A stretch of DNA of 64,000 nucleotides from an uncultured Gammaproteobacteria bacterium (GCA_964645605.1 CAZYCE010000006.1:2981-66980), one strand, 5' to 3'. Shown: positions 17,174 through 64,000, counted from the stretch's first letter. Program-made: numbers and translations. The notes: generated by a model not told the origin, from the letters alone.

Positions 17174-17884
17174 GTGGACACTCTTATCAAAGAATTATCC
17201 GTTTTTCTGCCTACATACAACGAGGAAGGTAACATAGCAGGAGTAATTGAAAATGTCGTCAAGGCTGCTTCTCAAAATGCCGAAAAATGGGAATTAATAG
17301 TGGTAGATGACGGTTCTATCGATTCAACGGCAGAAATTGTTTCAAAATTTGTAGAGTCAGACAGCCGCATTAAAATAATTAAGCACAAGAAAAATTCCGG
17401 TTATGGAGCGTCTCTCAAAACAGGGTTATACAATTCGAAATATAATTGGATTTCATTTATAGATTCCGACGGCCAGTTTGATTTCGGCGAAATAAATAAA
17501 TTTATTCAAAAGCAAAAGGAAACGGGAGCGGATATCGTCATTGGTTACTACAAAAAAAGAAAGGCGTCATCCTTAAAAATAATCACCAGTAAAATTTGGG
17601 AAGCCCTGGTGTTCATCCTTTTCGGTCTTAAAGTACGGGATATTGATTGTGGATTTAAACTTATTTCCAAAAGGGTGATTGAAAAAATTCCCAAACTGGA
17701 AAGTGAAAGAGGGGCGTTTATCAGCAGTGAACTATTGGTTAAGGCAAAAAAGAACGGATTCAAAATAGTGGAGATTCCCGTTACTCATTACCCGCGGTTA
17801 AAAGGAGAAGGGACGGGAAGAAAATTAAATGTGATTGTCGAAAGCTTCATAGATCTTTTCAGGCTGTGGAAAAAATTGCGATGA
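17174..17884 (+). CDS. GT2 polyprenyl-phosphate glycosyltransferase (DPM1/GtrB-like)
   Basis: LSVFLPTYNEEGNI, VVDDGSIDST, FIDSDGQFD. Confidence 0.8.
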   Translation: MDTLIKELSVFLPTYNEEGNIAGVIENVVKAASQNAEKWELIVVDDGSIDSTAEIVSKFVESDSRIKIIKHKKNSGYGASLKTGLYNSKYNWISFIDSDGQFDFGEINKFIQKQKETGADIVIGYYKKRKASSLKIITSKIWEALVFILFGLKVRDIDCGFKLISKRVIEKIPKLESERGAFISSELLVKAKKNGFKIVEIPVTHYPRLKGEGTGRKLNVIVESFIDLFRLWKKLR

Positions 17885-19437
17885 GGATTAGAAATTTTAT
17901 ATTTGGCATCAAAAATTGGATCAAAAAAAACCCTGTTGAATTTTGGATGCTTTTAGCGATCTTAATAATCGGGGCATTTTGCCGTCTTTACAAAATTGAC
18001 CAATACATGACTTTTTTAGGAGATGAGGGCCGTGACGTGATTATCGTCCGAAGAATTTTTACTGAGGCCCATCCGCCCTTAATAGGTCCGGGGACATCGG
18101 TTGGGAGTATGTATTTAGGTCCCCTTTATTACTACATGATGGCAATTCCGCTTTTATTAGCCGGTTTTTCGCCCGTGGGGCCGGCCGTGATGGTTGCTCT
18201 TTTGGGGGTTGCTACAATTGGTTTTGTCTGGTGGGTGGGTAGGATTTGGTTTTCCAAAACCGCCGGTCTGATTGCGGCGGGACTTTATGCGATTTCTCCG
18301 ACCGTTATAACTTTTTCCCGCTCTTCATGGAACCCGGACGTAATGCCTTTTTTTGCACTTTTGTTAACTTATTCTATATGGAAAGTTTGGAGGAAAGGCG
18401 AATTTAATTGGTTAATTGTTATGGGGATTTCTTTTGCCTTTGTGCTCCAATCACACTACTTGGGGCTTCTTTTGGCCCCAACGCTTTTTATATTTTGGTT
18501 TTTAACATGGAGAAATCTTAAATCGATTGGAAACTCAAAATCAAAAATTAGAAATTTCATTAAAAAATCACTCTTGGGTTTAGGATTTTTCCTACTGTTA
18601 ATGAGCCCTCTCCTAATTTTTGATTTAAGGCACGACTTTTTAAACTCAAAAGCTATTTATCAATTTATTGTTAACCGTGATGTGGCCCTTTCCGGAAGCC
18701 TTTTTGTGGCATTTTCCAAAATTCCCAAAGTATTTAATTTAATAAATTCAAGTTTACTTGCAGGAAAAAATACCCTGGCGGCGGTTGCCTCTTCAGTCTT
18801 TATCGTTTCCGGGGTGGTTTACGTTTTTGCCGAAAGTTTTGTCAAAAAGAAAAATTTTAAAATTAAGCCGGAGTATTGGCTTCTTTTTTCCTGGCTTTTC
18901 TTTGGTCTGATTGGCCTTAGTCTTTATAAAATGGAAATCTATGACCATTATTTTGGTTTCCTTTTCCCTGTGCCCTTTATTATTTTCGGATCGTTTATGG
19001 CTAAATTAATTGAAGACGGAAAAATTGCTAAGGTATTGGGTACGGCGGCGATACTTTATTTGGTAGTTATGGGCCTGATTCAGAATCCATTCAGATATGC
19101 TCCAAACCGCCAGCTGCAAAGGTCGCAAGATGTGGCTAAAAAAATATTAAGCCTATCCGCTGACAATTCTTTTAATTTGGCCGTTATTGCCGAAAGGAAC
19201 TACGAAGACGGTTATCGATATTTTCTTGAACTTTGGGGAGGAAAGGTTCTTCATGCCGATAGGTGGGATCCCGCAACCATTTCTGACCAACTTTTTGTTG
19301 TTTGCGAAAATGAACCTTCAAAATGTGATCCGACACACTCCCCGAAAGCGGAAGTTGCAAACTTCGGCATGAGTAAAATTGACGGGCAATGGGAGGTGGA
19401 TGGGGTTATAATATATAAACTTGCTCACGCACAATGA
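17866..19437 (+). CDS. GT-C-fold membrane glycosyltransferase (ArnT/PMT-like), subfamily B
   Basis: First extracytoplasmic loop FLGDEGRDVIIVRRIF...LIGPGTSVGSMYLGPLYYY; about 11 TM; overlaps upstream GT2 by 19 bp. Confidence 0.65.
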   Translation: MEKIAMRIRNFIFGIKNWIKKNPVEFWMLLAILIIGAFCRLYKIDQYMTFLGDEGRDVIIVRRIFTEAHPPLIGPGTSVGSMYLGPLYYYMMAIPLLLAGFSPVGPAVMVALLGVATIGFVWWVGRIWFSKTAGLIAAGLYAISPTVITFSRSSWNPDVMPFFALLLTYSIWKVWRKGEFNWLIVMGISFAFVLQSHYLGLLLAPTLFIFWFLTWRNLKSIGNSKSKIRNFIKKSLLGLGFFLLLMSPLLIFDLRHDFLNSKAIYQFIVNRDVALSGSLFVAFSKIPKVFNLINSSLLAGKNTLAAVASSVFIVSGVVYVFAESFVKKKNFKIKPEYWLLFSWLFFGLIGLSLYKMEIYDHYFGFLFPVPFIIFGSFMAKLIEDGKIAKVLGTAAILYLVVMGLIQNPFRYAPNRQLQRSQDVAKKILSLSADNSFNLAVIAERNYEDGYRYFLELWGGKVLHADRWDPATISDQLFVVCENEPSKCDPTHSPKAEVANFGMSKIDGQWEVDGVIIYKLAHAQ

Positions 19438-20417
19438 ACTACAAAAAATCAGCCGAAATACTTTCAGAGATTAAAACATCTAACGATATTTTAATTAATT
19501 GTCACAGAGGACCGGACTCAGACTCGGTAGGCTCCGCCCTGGCTTTATCGCAAGCTTTGAAAAGTTTAGGGAAAGAAGCCACGGTAATTTGCCCCAGCGA
19601 CATTCCTCCGGATCTGGCTTTTTTAAAGGGTGCTAACGAAATCGTACGGGTTAATTTTACATCCTTTGATTTTTCAGCTTACGATCTGTTTTTGATTCTT
19701 GATTCCTCGACATACTCGATGGTTACGGGTTTAAAAGATTCGGACAGACCCAACATAAAATCAGTTGTAATTGACCATCATCCTTCAAAGGAAAAGTTCG
19801 GGGATATAAACTTGATTGATCCTGCTATGACGTCCACAGGTGAACTTCTTTATAGAATATTGGACGATTGGGGAGTTTCTCTTACTAAAGATATATCCGA
19901 GTGTCTGTTGACGGGAATAATCGGAGATACGGGAACCTTCCAATATCAAAATGTGGGAGAGGCCACTTTGAGGATTGCCGCGGAGTTAATGGAAAAAGGT
20001 GCCGACAAAGACAAAATTGTTTACAACCTTTATAGAAATATCGATTTCAAAGAATTAAAAATGTGGGGTAAATTTATTGAAAGTATGAAAATCGAGGACG
20101 GTTTTGTCTGGTCGGCGCTGCCGCTTTCGACATACAAAGACTTTGGAGAATATTCTTATGCGAAAGAAGATGTTGCAAATTTATTTTTTCCGATTGTTAA
20201 AGGAACGGAATTTGGAATTGTAATGGTTGAAACGTCAGAAAACGTTTTGTCTGTAAGTTTTAGATCCAGAAACGGATTTGATGTTTCAAAGATTGCGAAC
20301 GAAATCGGAGGAGGAGGGCATAAAGCCGCCTCCGGTGCCAGGATAGAGGGGGTTCCTTTTCAAGAGGCTGTAAATCGTGTTCTTGCTGCGGCCGGAAAGC
20401 ATGTTAAAAAAGATTAA
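19434..20417 (+). CDS. DHH/DHHA1 phosphoesterase (NrnA-like nanoRNase/pAp phosphatase)
   Basis: DHH motifs (CHRGPDSDSVGS, VIDHHPS) and DHHA1 GGGGHKAASGA. Confidence 0.8.
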   Translation: MNYKKSAEILSEIKTSNDILINCHRGPDSDSVGSALALSQALKSLGKEATVICPSDIPPDLAFLKGANEIVRVNFTSFDFSAYDLFLILDSSTYSMVTGLKDSDRPNIKSVVIDHHPSKEKFGDINLIDPAMTSTGELLYRILDDWGVSLTKDISECLLTGIIGDTGTFQYQNVGEATLRIAAELMEKGADKDKIVYNLYRNIDFKELKMWGKFIESMKIEDGFVWSALPLSTYKDFGEYSYAKEDVANLFFPIVKGTEFGIVMVETSENVLSVSFRSRNGFDVSKIANEIGGGGHKAASGARIEGVPFQEAVNRVLAAAGKHVKKD

Positions 20418-21894
20418 AGGCGCTCAAATATATAATTTTCTTCTGGTTTTGGTCTTAGGGGTTGCGGCGTTCTTAAGATTTTTCCGTTTGTCCGATTTGC
20501 TTGGTTTTTGGTACGATCAGGGAAGGGACGCGCTGGTCATTTGGGACATGGTTTACCAAGGTAAGTTTACCTTGATTGGACCCATGATGGGATTTACGGG
20601 AATTTTCAGAGGGGCTTGGTACTACTGGATGATTGCTCCCTTTTATTGGTTAGGACACGGCAATCCAATTTATCCCTCGGTATTTTTGATATTGACTTCT
20701 ATTGTTGCAATTCTCCTTCTTTATAAGTTGGGTCATGAAATGGAGGGTTCAAAGACGGGACTCTTGGCGGCTTTTATCGCCTCTGTCTCAGGATATATTA
20801 TTGGAGCTTCACGTTGGTTGTCGGATCCGACACCAACGCTTTTGGTAAGTGTTGTCTTGGTTTGGTCACTTTTTAAATTTTCTAAAGGTAGCCGTTGGGC
20901 GCTGCCTCTTTCGGGATTTTTGGCCGGAATGGCACTTCAATTTAGTGCCGCAACGGAAATATTTTACGTTCCTGCAATTATTCTGATAGTTTTCCTTTTC
21001 AGAAAAAAGCTGAAAATCAGATTGACCAATTTGCTGCTGACGGGGGCGGCTTTTGTTATCCCTTTTGTGCCACAGCTACTTTTCGAGGTACGTCATCCCG
21101 GTGTTCAAAGCAGTGCCCTTTTGAATTTTCTTTTCCATGAAAAAACATTTACATATGCGTTTTGGGAAATAATCAAAACCAGAATTCCTTTTGATTACAA
21201 TATGATTGCTTCCAAGTTTTGGATAAACGGAGGTATGTTTTTTGCTCCGTTTTTTGGCATTTTTCTGGTTCTTTTAATTTTAAATTGGAAAAAACTTTGG
21301 CAGTCGGACAAATTTAAAATTATTTTTATTTTGGCTCTTGCCCCGCTTATCGGGACGTTGTTCTTTGTCAGCAATTTGGGAGGAGTATACGAGTATTATT
21401 TTACAGGCTATTATTTGATTTGGATTCTTCTTTTCTCGTATGTTTATATGACTGCCTTCAAAAGCAAATTAGTGAAAGTTACTTTAGCGGTATTTATGGC
21501 TTTCCTTTTGTTTTTCAATATAAAAGACTTTAGGGAATCTTATTTTAAACCTCTATCCGATCCGAAAATTATAGCTTTTAAAAACCAAATTTCGGCGGTT
21601 GATTGGGTCTACGAAAATGCCTCGGAAAGGCCCTTCAATGTTGATGAATATGTTCCTCCGGTCATTCCCTATGCCTATCAATATTTATTTTTGTGGAGAG
21701 GCGAAACCGTGCATAAAACTCAGCCTCTTACCAAAAACGTAGACTTACTTTATACTCTATATGAGGTGGATCCAAATCACCCCGAAAGGTTGCAGGCTTG
21801 GCTGGATAGACAAAAGGGCATCGGCAAGGTTTTAAAGGAAGAAACCTTCGGGGGGATAACAGTTCAGGAGAGAGAAAGAATAACTAAAAAATGA
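20401..21894 (+). CDS. GT-C-fold membrane glycosyltransferase, subfamily B
   Basis: FWYDQGRDALVIWDMV...LIGPMMGFTGIFRGAWYYW, a paralog of the 17866 and 28073 products; internal ATG 20401 chosen. Confidence 0.65.
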   Translation: MLKKIKGAQIYNFLLVLVLGVAAFLRFFRLSDLLGFWYDQGRDALVIWDMVYQGKFTLIGPMMGFTGIFRGAWYYWMIAPFYWLGHGNPIYPSVFLILTSIVAILLLYKLGHEMEGSKTGLLAAFIASVSGYIIGASRWLSDPTPTLLVSVVLVWSLFKFSKGSRWALPLSGFLAGMALQFSAATEIFYVPAIILIVFLFRKKLKIRLTNLLLTGAAFVIPFVPQLLFEVRHPGVQSSALLNFLFHEKTFTYAFWEIIKTRIPFDYNMIASKFWINGGMFFAPFFGIFLVLLILNWKKLWQSDKFKIIFILALAPLIGTLFFVSNLGGVYEYYFTGYYLIWILLFSYVYMTAFKSKLVKVTLAVFMAFLLFFNIKDFRESYFKPLSDPKIIAFKNQISAVDWVYENASERPFNVDEYVPPVIPYAYQYLFLWRGETVHKTQPLTKNVDLLYTLYEVDPNHPERLQAWLDRQKGIGKVLKEETFGGITVQERERITKK

Positions 21895-55656: not shown

Positions 55657-56394
55657 ATGAATCTTCAAAATAAAAATATTGTGGTAACAGGCGCCACCGG
55701 AGGGATTTGCAGGGAACTTGTCAAAAACTTAGACAGTGAGGGAGCCAATTTAATTTTGATTTCCAAATCGGCCGATGAACTTGAAAATCAAACCGGGCAG
55801 CTTCAAAGTAAATCCTTTTCTTTTGCCTGCGATTTTACCAAACCCGGCGAGGTTGAGGATTTGGCGAAAAAAATCTCAAAGCAGTTTAAATCCGTCGACG
55901 TATTAATTAATGCGGCCGGGATTGGGGTATATAAATCCCTTGAAGAAGAAACTCTCGAGGAATGGAACAACTCGATGAATATTAATGTGACCTCGCAATT
56001 TTTGATGAGTAAATACCTTATTAAAAATTTAAAGAAGGCCCGAGGGGCGGTCGTAATAAATATCGGATCCGGTGCCGGAGTTATTCCCATGGCGGGCAGA
56101 AGTATTTATTGTGCCACAAAATTTGCGGTAAGGGGTCTGACCCTCAGTTTGGCTGAAGAATTTAGACGTACTTCGGTAGACTTTTGTCTGATAACCCTGG
56201 GAAGCGTGCTTACGGGTTTTGGCCCCATGAGTTTTGAGGAAAAGAAAAAGGAGATGGAAAAGGGGAAGAAGGCGTATTTTACGCCGGATTGGGTAGCCAA
56301 GAAGCTTATTTCGATAATTAAGGATGACGATAGGAGGAGAGAATATACACTTTTCCCTTCAAATTATGCCTCCGAGTGGCAGAAACCCTCATAA
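55657..56394 (+). CDS. Short-chain dehydrogenase/reductase (SDR) family oxidoreductase
   Basis: VVTGATGGICREL (TGxxxGxG), NAAG, YCATK (YxxxK). Confidence 0.8.
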   Translation: MNLQNKNIVVTGATGGICRELVKNLDSEGANLILISKSADELENQTGQLQSKSFSFACDFTKPGEVEDLAKKISKQFKSVDVLINAAGIGVYKSLEEETLEEWNNSMNINVTSQFLMSKYLIKNLKKARGAVVINIGSGAGVIPMAGRSIYCATKFAVRGLTLSLAEEFRRTSVDFCLITLGSVLTGFGPMSFEEKKKEMEKGKKAYFTPDWVAKKLISIIKDDDRRREYTLFPSNYASEWQKPS

Positions 56395-56426: not shown

Positions 56427-57047
56427 CTACTTTTCTCCCAGAAATATTCTTGGGTTTACCGGAATTCCGAATATATTAATTTGAAAATGAAGATGCGGTC
56501 CTGTTGCCCAACCGGTTTGCCCCTCTGCCCCGATTAGGTCACCGGGTTCTACAATTTGACCCGCAGATACATAAATATTACTGAGATGTGCGTAAATTGA
56601 TTGGATTCCGTCTCCGTTGTCTATTATAACGTGCTTTCCGAAACCCCACGATATTTTTCCCGCGTATATAACTTTCCCCTCCATAAACGCCCTAACCGGG
56701 TCTCCTATCCGGTGTTCCGGATTTGCGATGTCTATTCCTGTATGTAAAGGCTGGTAGGGAAGATTGCTTTGACCAAACTCAAGAGTGATCACGCCTTTTA
56801 CGGGCCAGACTATTTTTTTATCAATTGTGGCGACTATCGATCCGTTCAGCGGATTATAGATCTCTATCCTTTGGGTTTTTGAATTAAAAGATGCGAGTTT
56901 ATCTGAAACCATGTCTATTCCGGTTTGGGTTAGGGTAACTACGGCAATAACCGGCATCGCCAATATAAAAAGAAAAGCCAGAAAGACGTAGGTCAGCTCC
57001 TTTCTGAATGACCAAACGGCGGCGATACCGCCGGGAGATATTCCCAT
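56427..57047 (-). CDS. Membrane-anchored M23/LytM-family peptidoglycan endopeptidase
   Basis: HTGIDIANPEH (HxxxD) and GQTGWATGPHLHFQI (HxH) zinc-binding motifs; N-terminal TM; its start codon directly abuts the VirB4 stop. Confidence 0.85.
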   Translation of the reverse strand: MGISPGGIAAVWSFRKELTYVFLAFLFILAMPVIAVVTLTQTGIDMVSDKLASFNSKTQRIEIYNPLNGSIVATIDKKIVWPVKGVITLEFGQSNLPYQPLHTGIDIANPEHRIGDPVRAFMEGKVIYAGKISWGFGKHVIIDNGDGIQSIYAHLSNIYVSAGQIVEPGDLIGAEGQTGWATGPHLHFQINIFGIPVNPRIFLGEK

Positions 57048-58802
57048 TTAAGTGTAGATTTCCCTGGGATCGGTGGTTAAAAGAGGATGTTCTTTTTCGG
57101 ATGCGACTACTTTAATTGCCACATGGTTCTGGTCCGCAATAATAAGTGCCTCACCTTTGTCACAAGTTAAGAGGAACTTTTGTTCATATTCGCTGAGATT
57201 AAATTCGCCGGCAACTTTTTTGATTGTGGTCGTGTCCTGTTTCATCAAAATACGGAGTGCGGATTGGGAAGCAATGGCCCGCCCGTACTCCTGAGCCAGA
57301 AAATCCTGAGCCTGCTGGGATATGATGGTTACCCCCAGATAGTACTTTCTGGCACGTCTGACAAGCCCTGCCATGAATCTTGCGCTTTCCTCCTGGGCCA
57401 GAAGGATCCAACCCTCATCAATGACAAGTATTCTTTTTCTGGGGTTGGTTTTAACTTGCGATTGAACAAAGTTGGCCAGAACCAACATCATAATCGGCCT
57501 GATGGTTTCGCTTAAGTCTTTTATATCAAACACCACAAGTCGGTTATCCAATTCAATGTTTGTCTGGGAGTCAAACATTGACGAAAGGGAACCTTTAATA
57601 AATCTTTCGAGCCGGTCACAAAGATTTTTTTGCCCCATTTTCTTAAGGACCCTATAGAAATCCTTAAGCAGTGGATACTTTTTGTGTTTTTCTTTCTTTG
57701 TTTTTATTGACCAGCCGAACTTTTTATAAGTTGCAATCAGGGCTTTATCGGTAATTGCTTTTTCCTCATCATTAAGAGTTCCCACCATGAGGGAAATTAT
57801 TTCGGTCAGATTTTGGATATGTTCGGCCAGATTGTTTTCTCCGGTGAAACCGGTGAGGGCAAAATCAAAAGGGTTAATCTTCTCCAAAGACCGAGCGGAG
57901 AGCTTTATGTAGGTTCCGGAAACACTGGAAGCAAGCTGTTTGTATTCCCTTTCCGGGTCGATGACGATAACGCTGGTTCTTTGCATAAGATGTCTCAAAA
58001 TTTCCACTTTTGCGGTATAACTTTTTCCGGAACCCGATTGGGCAAATAGGATTGAGTTGGCATTGTTTAGTGAAAATCTGTCAACTATGACCAGGGAATT
58101 GTTTGATCGGTTAATGCCATATAGGATGCCGGTTTCCTGAACGAGTTCCGATGAAATAAAAGGAAAAGTCAAAGCGGCACTTGAACTGTCCAGGTTTCTT
58201 TTTTGGGCAAGCAAATTTTCTCCCCGGGGAAGAATTGATTGCAGTGCTTCGATTTGTTGGAATGTTGCAATCTTTGTGTAAAAGAGCCTTGTGGACATCA
58301 TTGTTTCGAGAAGTTTTGTAATTTTATCCAGATCAGGCAAAGTATCGGCGGAAATGGCCAGATAGATTGAAACTTGAAAAAGTTTTTGCTGACCTCTTTG
58401 GATTTTGTCTCTAAGCTCCGTAGCCGATTCCAAAGGATCGGTTAATTCCGATCCGAAAACACGGCCTTCTTTTTGATAGGTTCTTTTTGTCGATTCAAGT
58501 TCGGTAATTTTCCTATTTAATTTCGGCAGAGCCGTTAATGGGTCCACTTGCTCAATGTGGTAGCTGATGTCGATGTTGTGATTGAAATTGACAAGCATAT
58601 TAAGCCAGCCGGTTGAGGCGATATAGGGGTAACCGGAAATAAACAGGCTTCGCACAAACTTGTTTTCAATCTGAATATAGGTTGGTTCTTCGGCCAGACC
58701 GGAATAGGAAATAAGATCGACCTGATCTTCCTCCCCGAAATCAAACTGAAAAGATTTCTTTAAAGTTTCCTTTTGTGATATTTTGCCCTTTTTGAATTTC
58801 AT
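57048..58802 (-). CDS. virB4: VirB4/TrbE/TraC-family type IV secretion ATPase, C-terminal ATPase portion
   Basis: Walker A AQSGSGKS, Walker B ILVIDEGW, VIVIDPEREY, VRSLFISGYPYIASTGWLNMLVNF region typical of CagE/TrbE/VirB4. Confidence 0.8.
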   Translation of the reverse strand: MKFKKGKISQKETLKKSFQFDFGEEDQVDLISYSGLAEEPTYIQIENKFVRSLFISGYPYIASTGWLNMLVNFNHNIDISYHIEQVDPLTALPKLNRKITELESTKRTYQKEGRVFGSELTDPLESATELRDKIQRGQQKLFQVSIYLAISADTLPDLDKITKLLETMMSTRLFYTKIATFQQIEALQSILPRGENLLAQKRNLDSSSAALTFPFISSELVQETGILYGINRSNNSLVIVDRFSLNNANSILFAQSGSGKSYTAKVEILRHLMQRTSVIVIDPEREYKQLASSVSGTYIKLSARSLEKINPFDFALTGFTGENNLAEHIQNLTEIISLMVGTLNDEEKAITDKALIATYKKFGWSIKTKKEKHKKYPLLKDFYRVLKKMGQKNLCDRLERFIKGSLSSMFDSQTNIELDNRLVVFDIKDLSETIRPIMMLVLANFVQSQVKTNPRKRILVIDEGWILLAQEESARFMAGLVRRARKYYLGVTIISQQAQDFLAQEYGRAIASQSALRILMKQDTTTIKKVAGEFNLSEYEQKFLLTCDKGEALIIADQNHVAIKVVASEKEHPLLTTDPREIYT

Positions 58803-58803
58803 A

Positions 58804-59472
58804 TTATTTGCCCTCCAAAAGAGCCCGGACCACCTCGCCTTTAAGCTCTTGGGTTTTTATTTGATCGGGGTTATAAAAGCTATAGAAAAGATCAAGAATT
58901 TCCAGGCTTTCCAGGATTTTAGATTTCATTCCCAGCTTTTCCAAACCTTTTATTACAATATCGCGGTTCAATTCGATCTGTTCTTTGATAAATTTAAAGT
59001 CGCTTCCGTGGTCGCTCCCTTTATAAGGGATGATCACATAGAAACGGCGGGAGAGAATTTTATTTCCGGCGATAAGATTTTTAACAAATAGGGAATAGTT
59101 ATCGAGTTGATTTTTGTATACCTTTTCTTTTTCCCCGTCCCTCATTTTCGATATTTGTTCCAGATACCTTTCAATATCGATTTCCCTTACCCTTATTAAA
59201 ATTTGAAGCGAGGTCGGAAGGGAATTGAGAAAATTCTCAAATTCATCAATAATTACATCCTGCTCATCTTCGCTTTTGAGTTCAAAGTTGACCGAAGAGG
59301 TTTCAATAATTGACCTGTATTCGTTACACGGTAAGACCAAAATTCCGTCCCTGACCTCTTTTATTTGAATTTGCCGTCTGGAACTTACTTTATTTTTCGA
59401 TTTGGTCCAAAACAACATTAAACCCTCCTTTCTTTTTGATCTTGAACGTAATATTTTCCTTGTCTTTTTCAA
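58804..59472 (-). CDS. VirB4-family N-terminal domain encoded as a separate ORF
   Basis: IKEVRDGILVLPCNEYRSIIETSSVNFELKSEDEQDVIIDEFENFLNSL matches the start of VirB4/TrbE proteins; its stop lies 1 nt before the ATPase ORF start and in a different frame; 222 + 584 aa is about a full-length VirB4. Confidence 0.6.
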   Translation of the reverse strand: MKKTRKILRSRSKRKEGLMLFWTKSKNKVSSRRQIQIKEVRDGILVLPCNEYRSIIETSSVNFELKSEDEQDVIIDEFENFLNSLPTSLQILIRVREIDIERYLEQISKMRDGEKEKVYKNQLDNYSLFVKNLIAGNKILSRRFYVIIPYKGSDHGSDFKFIKEQIELNRDIVIKGLEKLGMKSKILESLEILDLFYSFYNPDQIKTQELKGEVVRALLEGK

Positions 59473-59890
59473 AAATGCTTTGCTCCCTTACTCCGATCGG
59501 TTGTAGACGGGACTTTCTTTTCGATTCGGAGGGTCTAACCGATTTGGCGTGTTTTTTCCCGGGGTCAACTATGCCTGCCTCTCTCAGATAGGCGTCATTT
59601 TTATTGAATACGTAGTATTTAGGCCGGATGTTGTAGCGCAAGATAAGGATCAGCCAGTTAATTATTAATTTCTCATCAATTTTTAACGATAATATAAACG
59701 AAATTATGAGAACGGGTATTGTTAAAACCAGCTTATACCAGGCGATTGACATAGTTGGAACAAAAAGTATGTAAACTATACCTGCCCAAAAAACAGGAAA
59801 CATCAGAATTAGAATTTGCGTCAAACTTAAGTTCCCGGCAATTTTGTCTTCAACCGTCGTAATTTGAGCCGGAATTATAGTTGTCTTCAT
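59390..59890 (-). CDS. Small integral membrane protein, VirB3-like by position and topology
   Basis: Two to three TM helices in the N-terminal half, charged C-terminal tail; located immediately upstream of the VirB4 ORFs. Confidence 0.3.
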   Translation of the reverse strand: MKTTIIPAQITTVEDKIAGNLSLTQILILMFPVFWAGIVYILFVPTMSIAWYKLVLTIPVLIISFILSLKIDEKLIINWLILILRYNIRPKYYVFNKNDAYLREAGIVDPGKKHAKSVRPSESKRKSRLQPIGVREQSIFEKDKENITFKIKKKGGFNVVLDQIEK

Positions 59891-61179
59891 GGCTTTTCTG
59901 CCCTTTTATAAACTTTTGTTAACTCATTCTTTATGGTACTTTCTTTGGAAAACTCTTCGGTACCGGAACTTACCACGTTGACTACCTGTCTGCCTATACC
60001 TTTGAAGGTTTCATTACGTGAGGCTGAAAGAAGCATTTCCATCGCAAGCGATGGCGTTTTTAAGAGAGTTGCGAAAAGGCCGATAGCTACGGCAATTGAA
60101 ATAAGTGAACCATTGGAATTGCCCGGAATTGTTAAAAATGCTGAGGCCAGTTGGATGATCACAACATGGATGAAAACCGTAAATACGCTAACAAAGTAGC
60201 TTTTGACGGCCATTTCGGCAAATCCCGATAATTTTGGAATAGACCACAAAAGAAACACAAAAGGCGACAGAGCGCCGGCAATGGAAATTAAGATAAGTCT
60301 GCTTATATAGAATAAGAGAAGAACCACCGCAATTATTAGGAAAAGCATCAGGAAAATCAGGGTAATGAGGGGAGTTTCTCCCGTAATCAAACTCGCCGGG
60401 TTGATTGCATCCAAAATCCAGGCCTGATTTAAGCCGCCCGTTGCGTTTAACACGGTTTTTACCAGAACATTTGCTGTTGTTATCACATAATCCGTCAGAA
60501 ATAGTGAGACGTTAGCGCCGAGGAATGCGATACCTATTCTCGGTAGGATTATTCTGGATTCAAGCTCCTCAAAACCTAAGGTGGAGGCACTCATTATTCG
60601 AAATCCCAAAAGTGCCGTCACTATTACGAAAAGAGAATCAACGATGCCCAGACTGATCAGCCAAAAGTTGCTGATCACAGAATTTTCCAAGAGGCTTGGG
60701 GTAGTTGTAAGAAAACCGATAATACCATCGACAATCGGTTTTGTGGCACTTTGCACGATATTTTGCATAAAACTTGAAACGGCGTCTATTAAGACCTGCG
60801 TCAGGCCGTCGGTTGGGGTTACCGGGGATATTTGTGTAATCGGAATAACCGATCCTGATTCGGTTGGGGCATTGGAGCCGACCGCACCTCTGAAAACTGA
60901 AATTATTAAACCCGATGCGAGAACAACAACCAGACCGATAAGGGCGTTTCTGATGGTTTTTTTCGCATCCTCAAGACGGTCGGGACTACCGGATGAGGTT
61001 ATGTAGCCAATTCCGCCCTTGATGATGAAAAAAACCGCAGCAACGGAGGCGATTGTTGTAATTATTCCGAGAGTATTATTGGTGTAATCGGTTATTCCGG
61101 AAGGGACGTCGGCTGCCGCAACCGGTGTGGCAAATAGAAAGAAAAGAACTATTGTTAGAAAAAAGATAACCTTTTTCAT
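59887..61179 (-). CDS. Fusion protein: N-terminal VirB2/TrbC-like pilin domain plus a C-terminal VirB6/TrbL-like polytopic membrane domain
   Basis: Signal peptide MKKVIFFLTIVLFFLFATPVAAAD; residues ~40-95 (GGIGYITSSGSPDRLEDAKKTIRNALIGLVVVLA) are near-identical in pattern to the standalone pilin at 61226-61558; followed by at least 6 TM helices. Confidence 0.5.
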   Translation of the reverse strand: MKKVIFFLTIVLFFLFATPVAAADVPSGITDYTNNTLGIITTIASVAAVFFIIKGGIGYITSSGSPDRLEDAKKTIRNALIGLVVVLASGLIISVFRGAVGSNAPTESGSVIPITQISPVTPTDGLTQVLIDAVSSFMQNIVQSATKPIVDGIIGFLTTTPSLLENSVISNFWLISLGIVDSLFVIVTALLGFRIMSASTLGFEELESRIILPRIGIAFLGANVSLFLTDYVITTANVLVKTVLNATGGLNQAWILDAINPASLITGETPLITLIFLMLFLIIAVVLLLFYISRLILISIAGALSPFVFLLWSIPKLSGFAEMAVKSYFVSVFTVFIHVVIIQLASAFLTIPGNSNGSLISIAVAIGLFATLLKTPSLAMEMLLSASRNETFKGIGRQVVNVVSSGTEEFSKESTIKNELTKVYKRAEKP

Positions 61180-61225
61180 TTAAGTTATGTTCAGACTTTT
61201 TCATAGGCAGGACCTTTTTTAAACC

Positions 61226-61558
61226 TTATTGCATTCCGCCAAAAGCGGATGTTGCAAGTTGTGTGACAATATTTGACAAAACAAAAGCAGCAAGAACTAT
61301 TACAAGTCCGACCACCGAATAACGTATAGTTCTTTTGGATTTATCAAGCGACTCAGGATTACCTGAACTGGTAATGTATCCGATACCTCCCCACACCAAA
61401 AATCCGGTTGCCGTAATTCCTGCCAGGGTTACCAGAATTTGAATAATACTCTGAATAAAGGTTTGAATTTTGGTGACGTCGGTGGATTGTGCGTAGACAC
61501 TAGTCGCGTAAATTAGTGAGGTAATTAAAACCGATTGTAGAAAAATTAATTTCTTCAT
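61226..61558 (-). CDS. VirB2/TrbC-like conjugative-type pilin
   Basis: 110 aa; signal peptide MKKLIFLQSVLITSLIYATSVYAQS, two hydrophobic helices separated by GGIGYITSSGNPESLDKSKRTIR; GGGGTGA Shine-Dalgarno-like sequence 8 nt upstream of ATG 61558. Confidence 0.55.
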   Translation of the reverse strand: MKKLIFLQSVLITSLIYATSVYAQSTDVTKIQTFIQSIIQILVTLAGITATGFLVWGGIGYITSSGNPESLDKSKRTIRYSVVGLVIVLAAFVLSNIVTQLATSAFGGMQ

Positions 61559-61801
61559 CTTATTCACCCCCATTCGTAATTAAAAAGGTTTCACTTTAAC
61601 CAAAATATGAAATCGTTGAAATGTATACCAGAGTTACCCATATATGTCAACAGGGTAATTTATTTATTCATAGATCTTATACTTATGAGGATTTGGCAAG
61701 AATGTAAAAATGGTCGGTCGCTTAGTAGACTTATTTAGAACAAAGCAATTTTTAATAGAAATAAATTATGATGAAGTTAGAAAATTACTGGAAAAACATT
61801 G

Positions 61802-62509
61802 CTATTCTCTATAGGAGCATTTAGTTTCACCAAAATCCTTTTTAAGGGTACCTAAATCCAAAGTGGTATATATATCGATGGCTGAGACACCTCCCTTATC
61901 TTTATTATTTAAATAATCTGGACAGTTTTCTTCATTGGCTACCTGATTCGTAGGTTCCCAATAAGAAACGGTGTTATTTAAAATAATTGGTTTACCTTCT
62001 CCTCCTGCATACATACCTTGATAAATTTTTGATTTTTTATCTAAATCATAAACCATTAGCCCTCTTATTCCGGCTGACGAGCCACTATCCAGTACGAGAA
62101 AGTTGTTATATAGGCCAATACAAAAAGTTCTTTCCTCTTTTATTATAAAATCTTGGTTTCCGTTATTATATTTAACCAAAAACTCACTTGTTGCATTATT
62201 TTGTGACGGTTCTTTAATTGTTATTGAATACTTGTCGTTGGCAGAGCAGTCGCTAACAACGATAGGTTCAGTATTGGGTTCGTCGGATAAAGCTGGTGTG
62301 GGGGTTGTAATAGGCACTGTTGTAAGTAGTGATATTTGTTTTTTCAGTTGTATATTTTGATAAACAAGATAGCCGATGGAGGCAACTGCCAGTATGTGGA
62401 TAGCAATCATTAGTGCTAAAGACTTCTTGGTCTTCTGTGGTTGAATGGGAGATGTAGTAGGCGGAGTTTGTGGAATAGCCGGTTGTGTTTGGGTCAGACT
62501 TTCATTCAT
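61802..62509 (-). CDS. Hypothetical bitopic protein with a Pro/Thr-rich N-terminus, one TM and a Cys-containing extracytoplasmic domain (VirB8-like topology)
   Basis: PAIPQTPPTTSPIQPQ N-terminus, TM LALMIAIHILAVASIGYLVY, ~170-aa C-terminal domain with 5 Cys. Confidence 0.4.
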   Translation of the reverse strand: MNESLTQTQPAIPQTPPTTSPIQPQKTKKSLALMIAIHILAVASIGYLVYQNIQLKKQISLLTTVPITTPTPALSDEPNTEPIVVSDCSANDKYSITIKEPSQNNATSEFLVKYNNGNQDFIIKEERTFCIGLYNNFLVLDSGSSAGIRGLMVYDLDKKSKIYQGMYAGGEGKPIILNNTVSYWEPTNQVANEENCPDYLNNKDKGGVSAIDIYTTLDLGTLKKDFGETKCSYRE

Positions 62510-62660
62510 ATAGTTAAGTATTAGTTACTGAGATAAAAAAGTCAAATTTAAGGCCAATCGAGGTTCTGTACCAACTTTCTTTAAAACTTTAATATCCTCG
62601 AGTTTTTTTAATTTCAATTGAGTTGTTCGTCTTGGGACATTAGTTCTTAGTTGTATTATG

Positions 62661-62678
62661 CTGTACATATATGTACAG
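62661..62678. promoter_or_regulatory. Perfect 18-bp palindrome CTGTACATATATGTACAG overlapping the start codon of the AbiEi-like ORF, preceded by TATTAT (62654-62659); candidate autoregulatory operator
   Basis: Reverse complement is identical to the forward sequence; ATG at 62671-62673 lies at the palindrome centre. Confidence 0.4.
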
Positions 62679-63027
62679 GATAAATGAACTAATCAAGCTT
62701 GATCGGAGACTGTATCACACCAACGATTTAGCCATTCTGTGGGGTGTTTCCAATAAAAACACTTTATATACAACCATTAAACGGTATGTTCAGAAAGAAA
62801 TTCTGATCCCTGTCTATAAAGGTTTGTGTTCTACAATTCCTCTATCTCAGCTAAACCCCCTGGAGATGGGAGTGGCGATTGTTCATAAATATGCATATCT
62901 GAGTACCGAATCTGTATTGGCTCAAAAAAGGAATTATTTATCAGGCTACTTACGGGTACACTTTTGTAAGCAGTGTATCAAAAAAAATAACCGTTGGTGG
63001 AATATCGTTTACTTATCGGATGCTTAA
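62671..63027 (+). CDS. AbiEi-like antitoxin N-terminal domain protein, possibly truncated
   Basis: YHTNDLAILWGVSNKNTLYTTIKRYVQKEILIPVYKGLCSTIP and AYLSTESVLAQ resemble AbiEi_4 motifs (F.T.DLA.L.G.S...L.R.V..G.L..V.KGLY / YLSlESAL); only 118 aa. Confidence 0.4.
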   Translation: MYRINELIKLDRRLYHTNDLAILWGVSNKNTLYTTIKRYVQKEILIPVYKGLCSTIPLSQLNPLEMGVAIVHKYAYLSTESVLAQKRNYLSGYLRVHFCKQCIKKNNRWWNIVYLSDA

Positions 63028-63129
63028 AGATAAATTTTTGAATAACCCATCGGGTTTTACAAACCAAAATGTGGGGAAAACTTTCTGACTAACGGCAACA
63101 GCTTTTGCTGAGATTCCGACAAAATTTCG

Positions 63130-63441
63130 TCATGCATATTGTCTGAAATAATTTGTAAAGTAATTTTTTGTTTGGGGGCGCAAATTCACTCTTTTTCCAC
63201 GGATAATTTCCTTAAATAAGCCTTGGGTTTTTTTAAGACCGAAAACCGACTCTGCTACTAGGTAATCTTCCCATGTTCCATAATTTAATATATGCTCAAG
63301 CATGCTTTTTTCGGAAAGCTTTTGAGTGTCTTTTACATACCAGGCTAAATACGGTTTTTGCCTGAATAACCCCACTAACTTATCCATATGCTTATTATAT
63401 AACAAACCGGTCACCATTTCCTGAGTTTCAGGCACCGCCAA
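63130..63441 (-). CDS. Hypothetical protein
   Basis: 103-aa ORF downstream of the AbiEii-like gene in a different frame; no motif recognised. Confidence 0.3.
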   Translation of the reverse strand: MAVPETQEMVTGLLYNKHMDKLVGLFRQKPYLAWYVKDTQKLSEKSMLEHILNYGTWEDYLVAESVFGLKKTQGLFKEIIRGKRVNLRPQTKNYFTNYFRQYA

Positions 63442-63468
63442 TTGTTGATAACCACAATTTTAACAGAC

Positions 63469-64000
63469 CTATTTGAGGAGCGAATCGGCAAGGCGAATAG
63501 ATTCACGAGTAAAAAACGTTTTTACTTCACTCCATTTAATATCCGCGAGCATTGTTGGCATGACAGTTTCCTTTTCCGCATCCTCAAAATAATCAAGTGA
63601 TCGCAAGGTCGCATACAGGCGGTCGCCTGAGATATTGTATTTTTTTTGATACAAGCTAATCATCTCTTGTAATGAAAATTTCTTTGCAAGAACATAGACA
63701 TCAATAAAATCGCGGCGGGTACCTCTATCCTCAATGGCATGGATTTTCATTGCGGCAATGTCAGATAAACTTGCCAAATGAAGTCCTTCAAATGGCACGG
63801 TGGGCTCAAGGAGTGGATACTTGTAGTGAAATATACTAAACTTCGTTTTTCCAATCGTTCCCCAAACTGTCCACTTAGCAGTACCGGCTTCGTGGAACGA
63901 TGTATGGGTGGCAAGTTTTCGAGAAAGTTTTTCTTCGTCAAACGTTTCGAGTGTAAAAAAATCCAGATCAACCGAAATGCGGTGTCCCATCTGTAGAGCC
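63469..64000 (-). CDS. AbiEii/DUF1814-family nucleotidyltransferase (type IV TA toxin-like), N-terminus beyond the window edge
   Basis: ALQMGHRISVDLDFF (R.S.DlDF motif) and GTRRDFIDVYVL (R.rDlyDl motif); frame remains open through position 64000. Confidence 0.6.
   Translation of the reverse strand, partial: ALQMGHRISVDLDFFTLETFDEEKLSRKLATHTSFHEAGTAKWTVWGTIGKTKFSIFHYKYPLLEPTVPFEGLHLASLSDIAAMKIHAIEDRGTRRDFIDVYVLAKKFSLQEMISLYQKKYNISGDRLYATLRSLDYFEDAEKETVMPTMLADIKWSEVKTFFTRESIRLADSLLK

Follow-up and report, generated by a model that had tools for sequence, protein, structure and literature searches.

The 64,000-nucleotide stretch of DNA analyzed here (hereafter the window; GCA_964645605.1, CAZYCE010000006.1:2981-66980), deposited under the name of an uncultured Gammaproteobacteria bacterium, harbors six co-oriented, abutting open reading frames (ORFs) on its minus strand at positions 56427-61573. 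Judging from the sequences of their products, these six genes almost certainly encode the membrane core of a type IV secretion system (T4SS) of the kind found in Patescibacteria, which descends from monoderm MPF-FATA conjugation machineries and has acquired VirB2-like pilins. The initial annotation of this DNA had read the six tightly packed genes, in order of transcription, as a VirB2/TrbC-like pilin, a second pilin domain fused to a VirB6/TrbL-like domain, a small VirB3-like membrane protein, a VirB4 N-domain, a VirB4 ATPase and an M23 peptidase, and the profile searches reported below support these identities, that of the VirB6/TrbL-like domain at the family level. The system as such has already been described (Wang et al. 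2023, PMC10633639; Quinonero-Coronel et al. 2025, PMC12102498), and the locus is best regarded as a good representative of an established type, not as a new one.

In order to place the six-gene cassette among its relatives, one genome per species was scanned, which yielded 80 related loci. Most of these carry the title of Microgenomates-group Patescibacteria (Daviesbacteria, Roizmanbacteria, Shapirobacteria, Levybacteria, Woykebacteria, Collierbacteria and WWE3), and all named sources among the 120 best homologues are metagenome-assembled genomes (MAGs) of Patescibacteria/Microgenomates; VirB4 identity to these homologues and loci is 71-88%. A minority of MAG titles name uncultured Gammaproteobacteria, Pseudomonadales, Micrarchaeota or Nitrosocosmicus, which were assumed to be binning or labelling errors. 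The comparison with VirB4 loci of other Patescibacteria that the initial annotation had proposed returned the same gene order in all 80: order and strand of the six genes are unchanged in all 62 complete loci, and the 18 truncated ones are collinear as far as they reach. Relative to the window proteins, the median identity amounts to 75% for VirB4, 66% for the pilin, 63% for the N-domain protein (TrsD-like, see below), 57% for both the fusion protein and the M23 peptidase, and 44% for VirB3, while pairwise VirB4 identity over all loci spans 69-100% (median 78%). Against L082, the closest relative with genomic context (VirB4 88% identical), dN/dS values range from 0.02 to 0.12 for those genes, among the core genes and the coupling protein gene discussed below, in which synonymous sites are unsaturated. 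By these measures the six-gene core is extremely conserved across orders. Some MAGs hold two whole cassettes (L004/L029, L013/L021, L026/L035 and L050/L068); in one such MAG the two VirB4 proteins are 76% identical and each is closer to that of another genome (98% and 89%), which points to independent acquisition, to paralogy of long standing or to contamination of the bin.

Read from the pilin gene towards the M23 gene, the intergenic distances are 46, -4, -29, +1 and 0 nt, a succession of short gaps and overlaps of the type expected for a translationally coupled operon, in which the M23 start directly abuts the VirB4 stop. Two of the gene starts required a choice. The pilin gene may begin at ATG 61573, giving a product of 115 aa, or at ATG 61558, giving one of 110 aa; the latter is the most likely start, because a Shine-Dalgarno sequence (GGGGGTG) precedes it and the alignments with homologues begin at residue 1 of the 110-aa product. 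Similarly, the fourth ORF can be read from TTG 59472 (58804-59472), and its most likely start is instead the ATG at 59418, which lies behind a GGAGGG sequence and yields 204 aa.

The first gene of the cassette (61226-61558, minus strand) encodes the free pilin, a protein composed of a signal peptide and two hydrophobic helices that matches PF18895 (T4SS_pilin, 9.9e-14) and PF04956 (TrbC, 3.1e-11) in a Pfam search and scores above the curated cutoff of NF045849, the Mbov_0395 pilin-like family (43.6 versus 40 bits). It is 43-77% identical at the amino acid level in 63 related loci, with a dN/dS of 0.12 against L082. The second gene (59887-61179, minus strand) encodes a 430-aa protein in which a pilin domain, matched by PF18895 at residues 28-96 (4.5e-10), is followed by a polytopic domain spanning approximately residues 125-400. 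Taken alone, the C-terminal domain of the window copy stays below the Pfam threshold, with a match over the whole TrbL_4 profile at E = 0.027 and 14.3 bits for a gathering score of 27, and the VirB6/TrbL-like assignment was evaluated at the family level. Among the 51 orthologues of about 430 aa, all present the pilin domain and 25 match TrbL_4 (best 2e-8). An exhaustive search with residues 120-430 as query returned 490 cluster representatives, and the domain starts near residue 100-130 in most full-length matches. Of 92 distant relatives (17-40% identical), 41 match T4SS_pilin, 28 match TrbL_4 (1e-12) and 14 match PF04610, the canonical TrbL/VirB6 family (1e-7). The domain conforms to what is expected of a polytopic membrane protein with at least five transmembrane (TM) helices and a predicted VirB6 fold; the AlphaFold prediction was based on 92 diverse representatives, after an alignment of the 51 close orthologues had given a pLDDT of 57.6 and unusable Foldseek matches. 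A search of PDB sequences with a profile of the fusion protein returned no match. The family-level sequence evidence for a pilin-VirB6 fusion is clear. VirB6 has been described as "scarce" in Microgenomatia, and no such VirB2-VirB6 fusion is mentioned in that survey (PMC12102498); in the cassettes studied here (the 80 loci), the "missing" VirB6 appears to reside in the C-terminal part of what looks like a second "pilin" gene, and the conservation of this fusion in Microgenomatia is a modestly new finding.

The three following genes correspond jointly to a VirB3-VirB4 unit. The third (59390-59890, minus strand) overlaps its upstream neighbor by 4 nt at its start and the next gene by 29 nt at its stop, and encodes a 166-aa VirB3/PrgI-like membrane protein with two TM helices and a variable hydrophilic tail. 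Its match to PF12666 (PrgI, 6.3e-6) barely passes, at 27.1 bits for a gathering score of 27.0, and the precomputed PrgI matches of its orthologues are flagged as weak; the protein also spans positions 2-154 of NF045975, a model of the Mycoplasma VirB3-VirB4 fusion protein encoded by integrative and conjugative elements (ICEs). The fourth gene (58804-59418, minus strand) encodes a free-standing, TrsD-like VirB4 N-domain that matches positions 11-172 of NF045971 (7.6e-11) and positions 99-284 of NF045975 (7.7e-10), with a weak match to NF041427 (TrsD/TraD, 1.6e-4); its orthologues match PF26593 (TraC-like). The fifth (57048-58802, minus strand) encodes the VirB4 ATPase, a 584-aa protein equivalent to the C-terminal two-thirds of a full-length VirB4, which covers positions 194-734 of the 752 of NF045971 (conju_CD1110) at 2.3e-109 and 366.7 bits, above the cutoff of 325, and also matches P-loop_TraG in Pfam (2.3e-21). 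Its sole match among PDB sequences is 4AG5, the VirB4 C-terminal domain (2.2e-45), and it presents both a Walker A (AQSGSGKS) and a Walker B (ILVIDE) motif. This ATPase is 71-79% identical in the 80 loci, with a dN/dS of 0.02 against L082. A HerA/FtsK identity of the ATPase, one of the outcomes that the initial annotation had named as overturning its reading, was rejected, since the HerA model reaches 22.9 bits as against 366.7 for VirB4 and FtsK is absent among the matches.

The three proteins are collinear with the single NF045975 polypeptide (positions 2-154, 99-284 and 292-890), and the closest curated families are conjugative, namely the CTn2 CD1110 and Mycoplasma ICE models. A frameshift, a pseudogene or an assembly error was also considered as the cause of the VirB4 split and was ruled out, each part having its own GGAGGG ribosome binding site. 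In 77 of 77 related loci, N-domain and ATPase have ORFs of their own, which in 64 of these loci share an 8-nt overlap of the form ATGnTTAA, and because the two parts are separate throughout, the split is ancestral.

The last gene (56427-57047, minus strand) encodes a 206-aa, membrane-anchored peptidoglycan endopeptidase of the M23 (LytM) type, which matches PF01551 over the full profile (2.8e-29) and M23 peptidases in the PDB down to 2e-19. A single N-terminal TM segment (residues 21-39) precedes the two zinc-ligand motifs (HxxxD and HxH), present as HTGID at residue 102 and HLH at residue 185, so that the enzyme is, by its motifs, catalytically intact. The gene lies immediately 3' of virB4 in all 79 related loci whose contig reaches past virB4. 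The protein is likely a VirB1 analogue, as had been proposed.

Inspection of the sequence past position 64000, which had been suggested as a check, became possible through a public contig (L081) that encodes an identical pilin, is 100% identical to window positions 59708-64000 over 4293 nt and extends 6437 nt further. Proceeding outward from the pilin, L081 encodes a 235-aa protein, an AbiEi-like fragment, a DUF6922/AbiEii pair, DUF2958, a Replic_Relax protein, a type IV coupling protein (T4CP), and then a GT4 glycosyltransferase and a mannosyltransferase. The VirD4-like T4CP, the MOBC-type Replic_Relax and DUF2958 (3e-18) thus lie 2.7-4.7 kb past position 64000. A tblastn search of the window for T4CP, Replic_Relax, PLD nuclease, DUF2958 and serine recombinase genes found none, and the earlier statement that neither VirD4 nor a relaxase is present in the window is therefore accurate, whereas the framing of the locus as a minimal system has to be corrected. 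The reported absence of VirB9, VirB10 and VirB11 holds for the T4CP-to-M23 block defined below, all ORFs of which were free of matches to the VirB7, VirB9, VirB10 and VirB11 families in Pfam and/or NCBIfam scans; the remainder of the window was sampled.

The T4CP and Replic_Relax genes are on the same strand as the cassette, which forms the 3' half of a co-oriented block of 12.3 kb, from the T4CP gene to the M23 gene, that runs from window position 56427 to position 68726 on the extended contig (the part past the window being 64807-68726, or L081 1712-5631). The T4CP is an 882-aa protein encoded 5.2-7.8 kb from the pilin start, with matches to TrwB_AAD_bind (3e-10) and TraG-D_C (3.9e-5), intact Walker A (GATGTGKST) and Walker B (YVDEF) motifs, and a dN/dS of 0.115 against L082 that denotes purifying selection. 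The Replic_Relax protein (255 aa, L081 4497-5264) scores 32.8 bits against PF13814, for a gathering score of 25.3, and only 15.2 bits against the NCBIfam MobC_subf model. This Pfam family is the equivalent of the MOBC superfamily of relaxases (PMC5357655, Table 1), a PD-(D/E)XK-like group (PMC12857230), and it is common in Microgenomates, with at least 320 clusters of about 257 aa, all matching PF13814.

The order T4CP, Replic_Relax, (DUF2958), cassette is also found in L082, where the genes run GT2, T4CP, Replic_Relax, Fic, S51 peptidase, pilin to M23, GT4 and mannosyltransferase. Comparison of the two by blastn revealed that the whole T4CP-to-M23 block is inverted, while both flanks (GT2 on one side, GT4/mannosyltransferase on the other) keep their orientation. 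Since it has been inverted whole between identical flanking genes, the block behaves as a unit, and its position on the chromosome has not changed. Some 40 nt of promoter-like sequence located 5' of the T4CP gene travel with the inverted block. Among the 80 related loci, 47 of which have at least 7 kb of upstream sequence, T4CP and Replic_Relax genes are both present in nine, upstream of the pilin gene in eight and downstream of the cassette in one (L050); DUF2958 accompanies them in seven of the nine, and a serine recombinase gene lies next to that of the T4CP in five. In one further locus (L061), Replic_Relax was detected but no T4CP. Loci with a linked T4CP do not group together and belong to several VirB4 subclusters. 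Of the loci with a visible upstream region, about a fifth, this genome included, thus show linkage of the cassette lineage to T4CP and MOBC-type genes, which we consider modestly new.

These data bear first on whether the locus encodes a working machine at all. A decaying remnant of an integrated conjugative element could account for the lack of an integrase in the available sequence of this genome, for the divergence of its Replic_Relax gene and for the toxin-antitoxin genes and AbiEi fragment in the variable segment next to the pilin. Yet all six ORFs and the T4CP gene are intact and keep their catalytic motifs, dN/dS lies between 0.02 and 0.12 for those with unsaturated synonymous sites, and gene order and overlaps are identical in the 80 loci, so that we consider decay very improbable. 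Import of DNA by an uptake T4SS of the ComB or Ced kind, in place of substrate export, was weighed on similar grounds. T4SS-based import exists elsewhere (ComB in H. pylori, Ced in archaea), Patescibacteria depend on external nucleotides (PMC10633639), and the archaeal CedD model does match the VirB4 ATPase weakly (28 bits); the latter, however, scores about ten times better with conjugative families, the related loci have no linked gene for ComEC or DprA, and in Saccharibacteria it is type IV pili and ComEC on which competence relies, whereas their T4SS is essential independently of ComEC (PMC12857230). The probability of an import function appears to be minimal.

Because the core is linked to a conserved T4CP, transfer of a substrate fed by this protein is favored, with DNA as a possible substrate. 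We regard T4CP-coupled transfer to a neighboring cell as the probable mode of action here, at modest confidence, and the identification of DNA as the molecule transferred as tentative, at somewhat less than an even chance. Several observations weigh against such a conjugative reading. The Replic_Relax protein of this genome is 30-39% identical to 11 relatives, and 32% to that of L082, as compared with 70-88% for the products of neighboring genes. It departs from these relatives at positions that are invariant or nearly so (R22Y, H110N, E168I and R180D), and E168I replaces with Ile the Glu of the F-(V/L)-E motif that follows PDAY; the protein may be an inactivated or replaced relaxase. The block occupies the same chromosomal site in two genomes that are about 30% apart in nucleotides, which speaks against recent mobility, and neither an integrase nor a recombinase was found in the block or in the 1.7 kb past the T4CP gene. 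The ends of the block present no terminal repeats or att-like sequences, and the window contains no tRNA genes. Where the upstream sequence reaches 7 kb or more, T4CP and Replic_Relax genes precede the pilin in only eight related loci, and 51 of the 80 have instead a PLD-type nuclease gene downstream. Lastly, relaxases are rare in this T4SS clade, which has probably been co-opted for non-conjugative roles (PMC12102498), and the T4SS of Southlakia is essential for epibiotic growth without a recognizable relaxase or coupling protein (PMC10633639). As regards an origin of transfer, a search for inverted repeats returned only generic ones, in the spacer between DUF2958 and DUF6922.

The degenerate relaxase-like gene, the missing integrase, the stable site and the Southlakia precedent together favor a non-conjugative role at host contact. 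The T4SS would then be a pilus-bearing apparatus that exports or imports proteins or other molecules where bacterium and host meet, the neighboring T4CP and Replic_Relax being functionally separate or vestigial. In Southlakia epibionticum, the essential T4SS is independent of ComEC (PMC10633639; PMC12857230), and the VirB4 proteins found in 2417 of 3035 Patescibacteria genomes are mostly chromosomal and vertically inherited (PMC12102498); likewise, most of the related loci have no T4CP or Replic_Relax gene nearby. Such a role leaves less room for a T4CP that is co-oriented with the cassette, travels with it through the inversion and is under purifying selection, or for the recurrence of the T4CP-Replic_Relax-cassette synteny in several VirB4 subclusters, and no effector or host-contact gene is conserved beside the cassette. 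We consider a host-contact function a serious contender, if on balance one with a probability short of one half.

For T4CP-coupled transfer, an assembly model can be drawn by analogy with the roles of homologous proteins in solved and otherwise studied T4SSs. The PrgI/VirB3 protein and the TrsD-like N-domain would dock a hexameric VirB4 ATPase on the cytoplasmic membrane, where the VirB6-like polytopic domain of the fusion protein would form a membrane channel or the base of a stalk, and the N-terminal pilin module of the fusion would sit at the point where VirB4 polymerizes the free pilin. The membrane-anchored M23 endopeptidase would open the peptidoglycan locally, and the T4CP would feed the machine a substrate to be moved to a neighboring cell, which ancestrally, and perhaps still, would be nicked DNA.

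The composition of the locus agrees closely with that of previously described Patescibacteria-clade systems, such as the essential Southlakia T4SS (SEML1_0006-0019), which has pilins within its cluster and resembles Gram-positive conjugation systems (PMC10633639), and the virB4 loci surveyed by Quinonero-Coronel et al. (2025), whose VirB4 clade is nested in MPF-FATA and accompanied by adjacent TrsD, PrgI/VirB3, VirB2 arrays and peptidase/LysM hydrolases (PMC12102498). Shared elements include a monoderm, MPF-FATA-derived VirB4 next to a TrsD-like N-domain, PrgI/VirB3, in-cluster VirB2-like pilins, a VirB6-like domain and a peptidase directly after virB4, without an outer-membrane core. Southlakia, however, has an array of six pilins, whereas two genes encode pilin domains here, one of them fused to VirB6. 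The adjacent T4CP and MOBC-type genes likewise set this locus apart from most of those surveyed, since 148 of 5713 T4CPs and 15 relaxases, most commonly of class MOBC, lie near virB4 (PMC12102498). The MPF-FATA systems of Staphylococcus and Enterococcus (pGO1/pSK41 Trs and pIP501 Tra) have in common with the locus a small TrsD/TraD homologue of the VirB4 N-terminus beside the VirB4 ATPase, a TrsC/PrgI-type VirB3, a T4CP and a dedicated cell-wall hydrolase, but they lack a VirB2 pilin, use an SLT+CHAP hydrolase (TrsG/TraG) and not an M23 enzyme, and have a relaxase of class MOBQ and not MOBC; pGO1 moreover has no recognizable VirB6 (PMC12102498). Mycoplasma ICEs (ICEA/Mbov_0395-0397) offer counterparts to the pilin, which passes the Mbov_0395 cutoff, and to the VirB3/TrsD-like/VirB4 series, which is collinear with Mbov_0397, and they combine a comparable minimal monoderm set with a VirD4 homologue. 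In these elements VirB3 and VirB4 form one protein, as opposed to three ORFs here; mycoplasmas have neither wall nor hydrolase, and the ICE, whose conjugative activity is proven, moves by means of a DDE transposase. From the MPF-T systems (R388 Trw and Agrobacterium VirB), with their stalk and pilus base, the locus differs in the absence of genes for VirB5, VirB7, VirB8, VirB9, VirB10 and VirB11, in the fusion of VirB2 to VirB6 in one of its two genes with a pilin domain, and in a monoderm envelope.

The cassette is preceded by a leader of 228 nt (61574-61801, minus strand) located 5' of the pilin gene, which is AT-rich as the initial annotation had stated (27.6% GC, versus 40.3% for the window) and should comprise the promoter region. 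Direct reading identifies the sequence TTGACA-17 nt-TATACA about 50 nt 5' of the pilin ATG, although scans for sigma-70 promoters and terminators over the cluster revealed no excess above shuffled sequences. In 52 of 57 related cassettes (from the series L002-L080, e.g. L011, L013, L027 and L042), a GC-rich hairpin followed by a T-run, TTTTTTGTA, is present 41-87 nt 5' of the pilin start; this element is not found in the window leader. The hairpin stems vary yet stay complementary (GCTGCC/GGCAGC, GCCCCT/AGGGGC, ACTGCC/GGCAGT, TGCCACC/GGTGGCA), and the element is present both where the upstream gene is co-directional (28 loci) and where it is divergent (24 loci), which implies that it is not merely the terminator of that gene. 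It may serve the T4SS operon as an attenuator or an insulator in the leader; an Rfam search of the hairpin in three loci (L011, L027 and L042) returned no family.

The operon had been described as bounded by convergent genes, which is correct for its 3' end, where an SDR gene (55657-56394, plus strand) converges on the cluster, but not for its 5' end, where the neighboring gene (61802-62509, minus strand) is co-oriented. This gene encodes the 235-aa protein mentioned above, a non-conserved, single-pass membrane protein with one hydrophobic segment (residues 31-49). It was considered as a conserved component, for instance a VirB8-like one, and discarded, having no tblastn match in the 80 loci and no Pfam or NCBIfam family. 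It is part of the variable region that separates the pilin gene from the relaxase-like gene, together with a separate, truncated AbiEi-like antitoxin ORF (62671-63027, plus strand; 118 aa; NF047376 TAA_AbiEi at 3.1e-6, under the cutoff) and an AbiEii toxin gene, the 3' part of which lies in the window (63469-64000, minus strand; PF08843, 5.3e-9) and the start of which is at position 64101 on the extended contig. The full 210-aa AbiEii product in L081 matches PF08843 at 2.7e-14 and its DUF6922 partner is encoded upstream (L081 6083-6969); the same slot in L082 is occupied by the Fic and S51 peptidase genes. Downstream of the M23 gene, the 51 related loci with a PLD-type nuclease gene present a variable insert of 0.3-8.5 kb (median about 2.4 kb), followed on the opposite strand by a gene for a PLD/Nuc-like protein of about 150 aa (PLDc_2, 1.3e-10; e.g. 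L006 12900-13364, L013, L027 and L045), which a serine recombinase gene adjoins in three loci. We take this PLD-family protein to resemble the Nuc endonuclease of IncN plasmids. On a larger scale, the T4SS block is flanked on both sides by a surface-glycosylation island of about 45 kb, which in the window (17866-21894 and 28073-54768) features a very long series of genes for paralogous, roughly 500-aa membrane proteins; several of these are GT-C glycosyltransferases (PMT_2/PMT, GT87), and GT2, SDR and sugar epimerase/dehydratase genes lie alongside.

In its strongest form, the transfer hypothesis holds that the 12.3-kb block is a complete, pilus-bearing conjugation system of a monoderm bacterium of the candidate phyla radiation, that the fusion protein represents a new pilus-base architecture, and that the T4SS of this clade continues to transfer DNA in a substantial minority of Microgenomatia. 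We deem this composite proposal unlikely as it stands. If true, it would run contrary to the published inference of general co-option, and the VirB2-VirB6 fusion would be a channel subunit carrying its own pilin module. Few machineries are known to be essential for the epibiotic life of Patescibacteria, and their T4SS is one of them. In nine of the 80 related loci, as well as in L082 and in this genome, the core is linked to a coupling ATPase and a MOBC-type protein, with which it can move as a block; this linkage keeps DNA transfer possible and points to the loci at which experiments could be directed.

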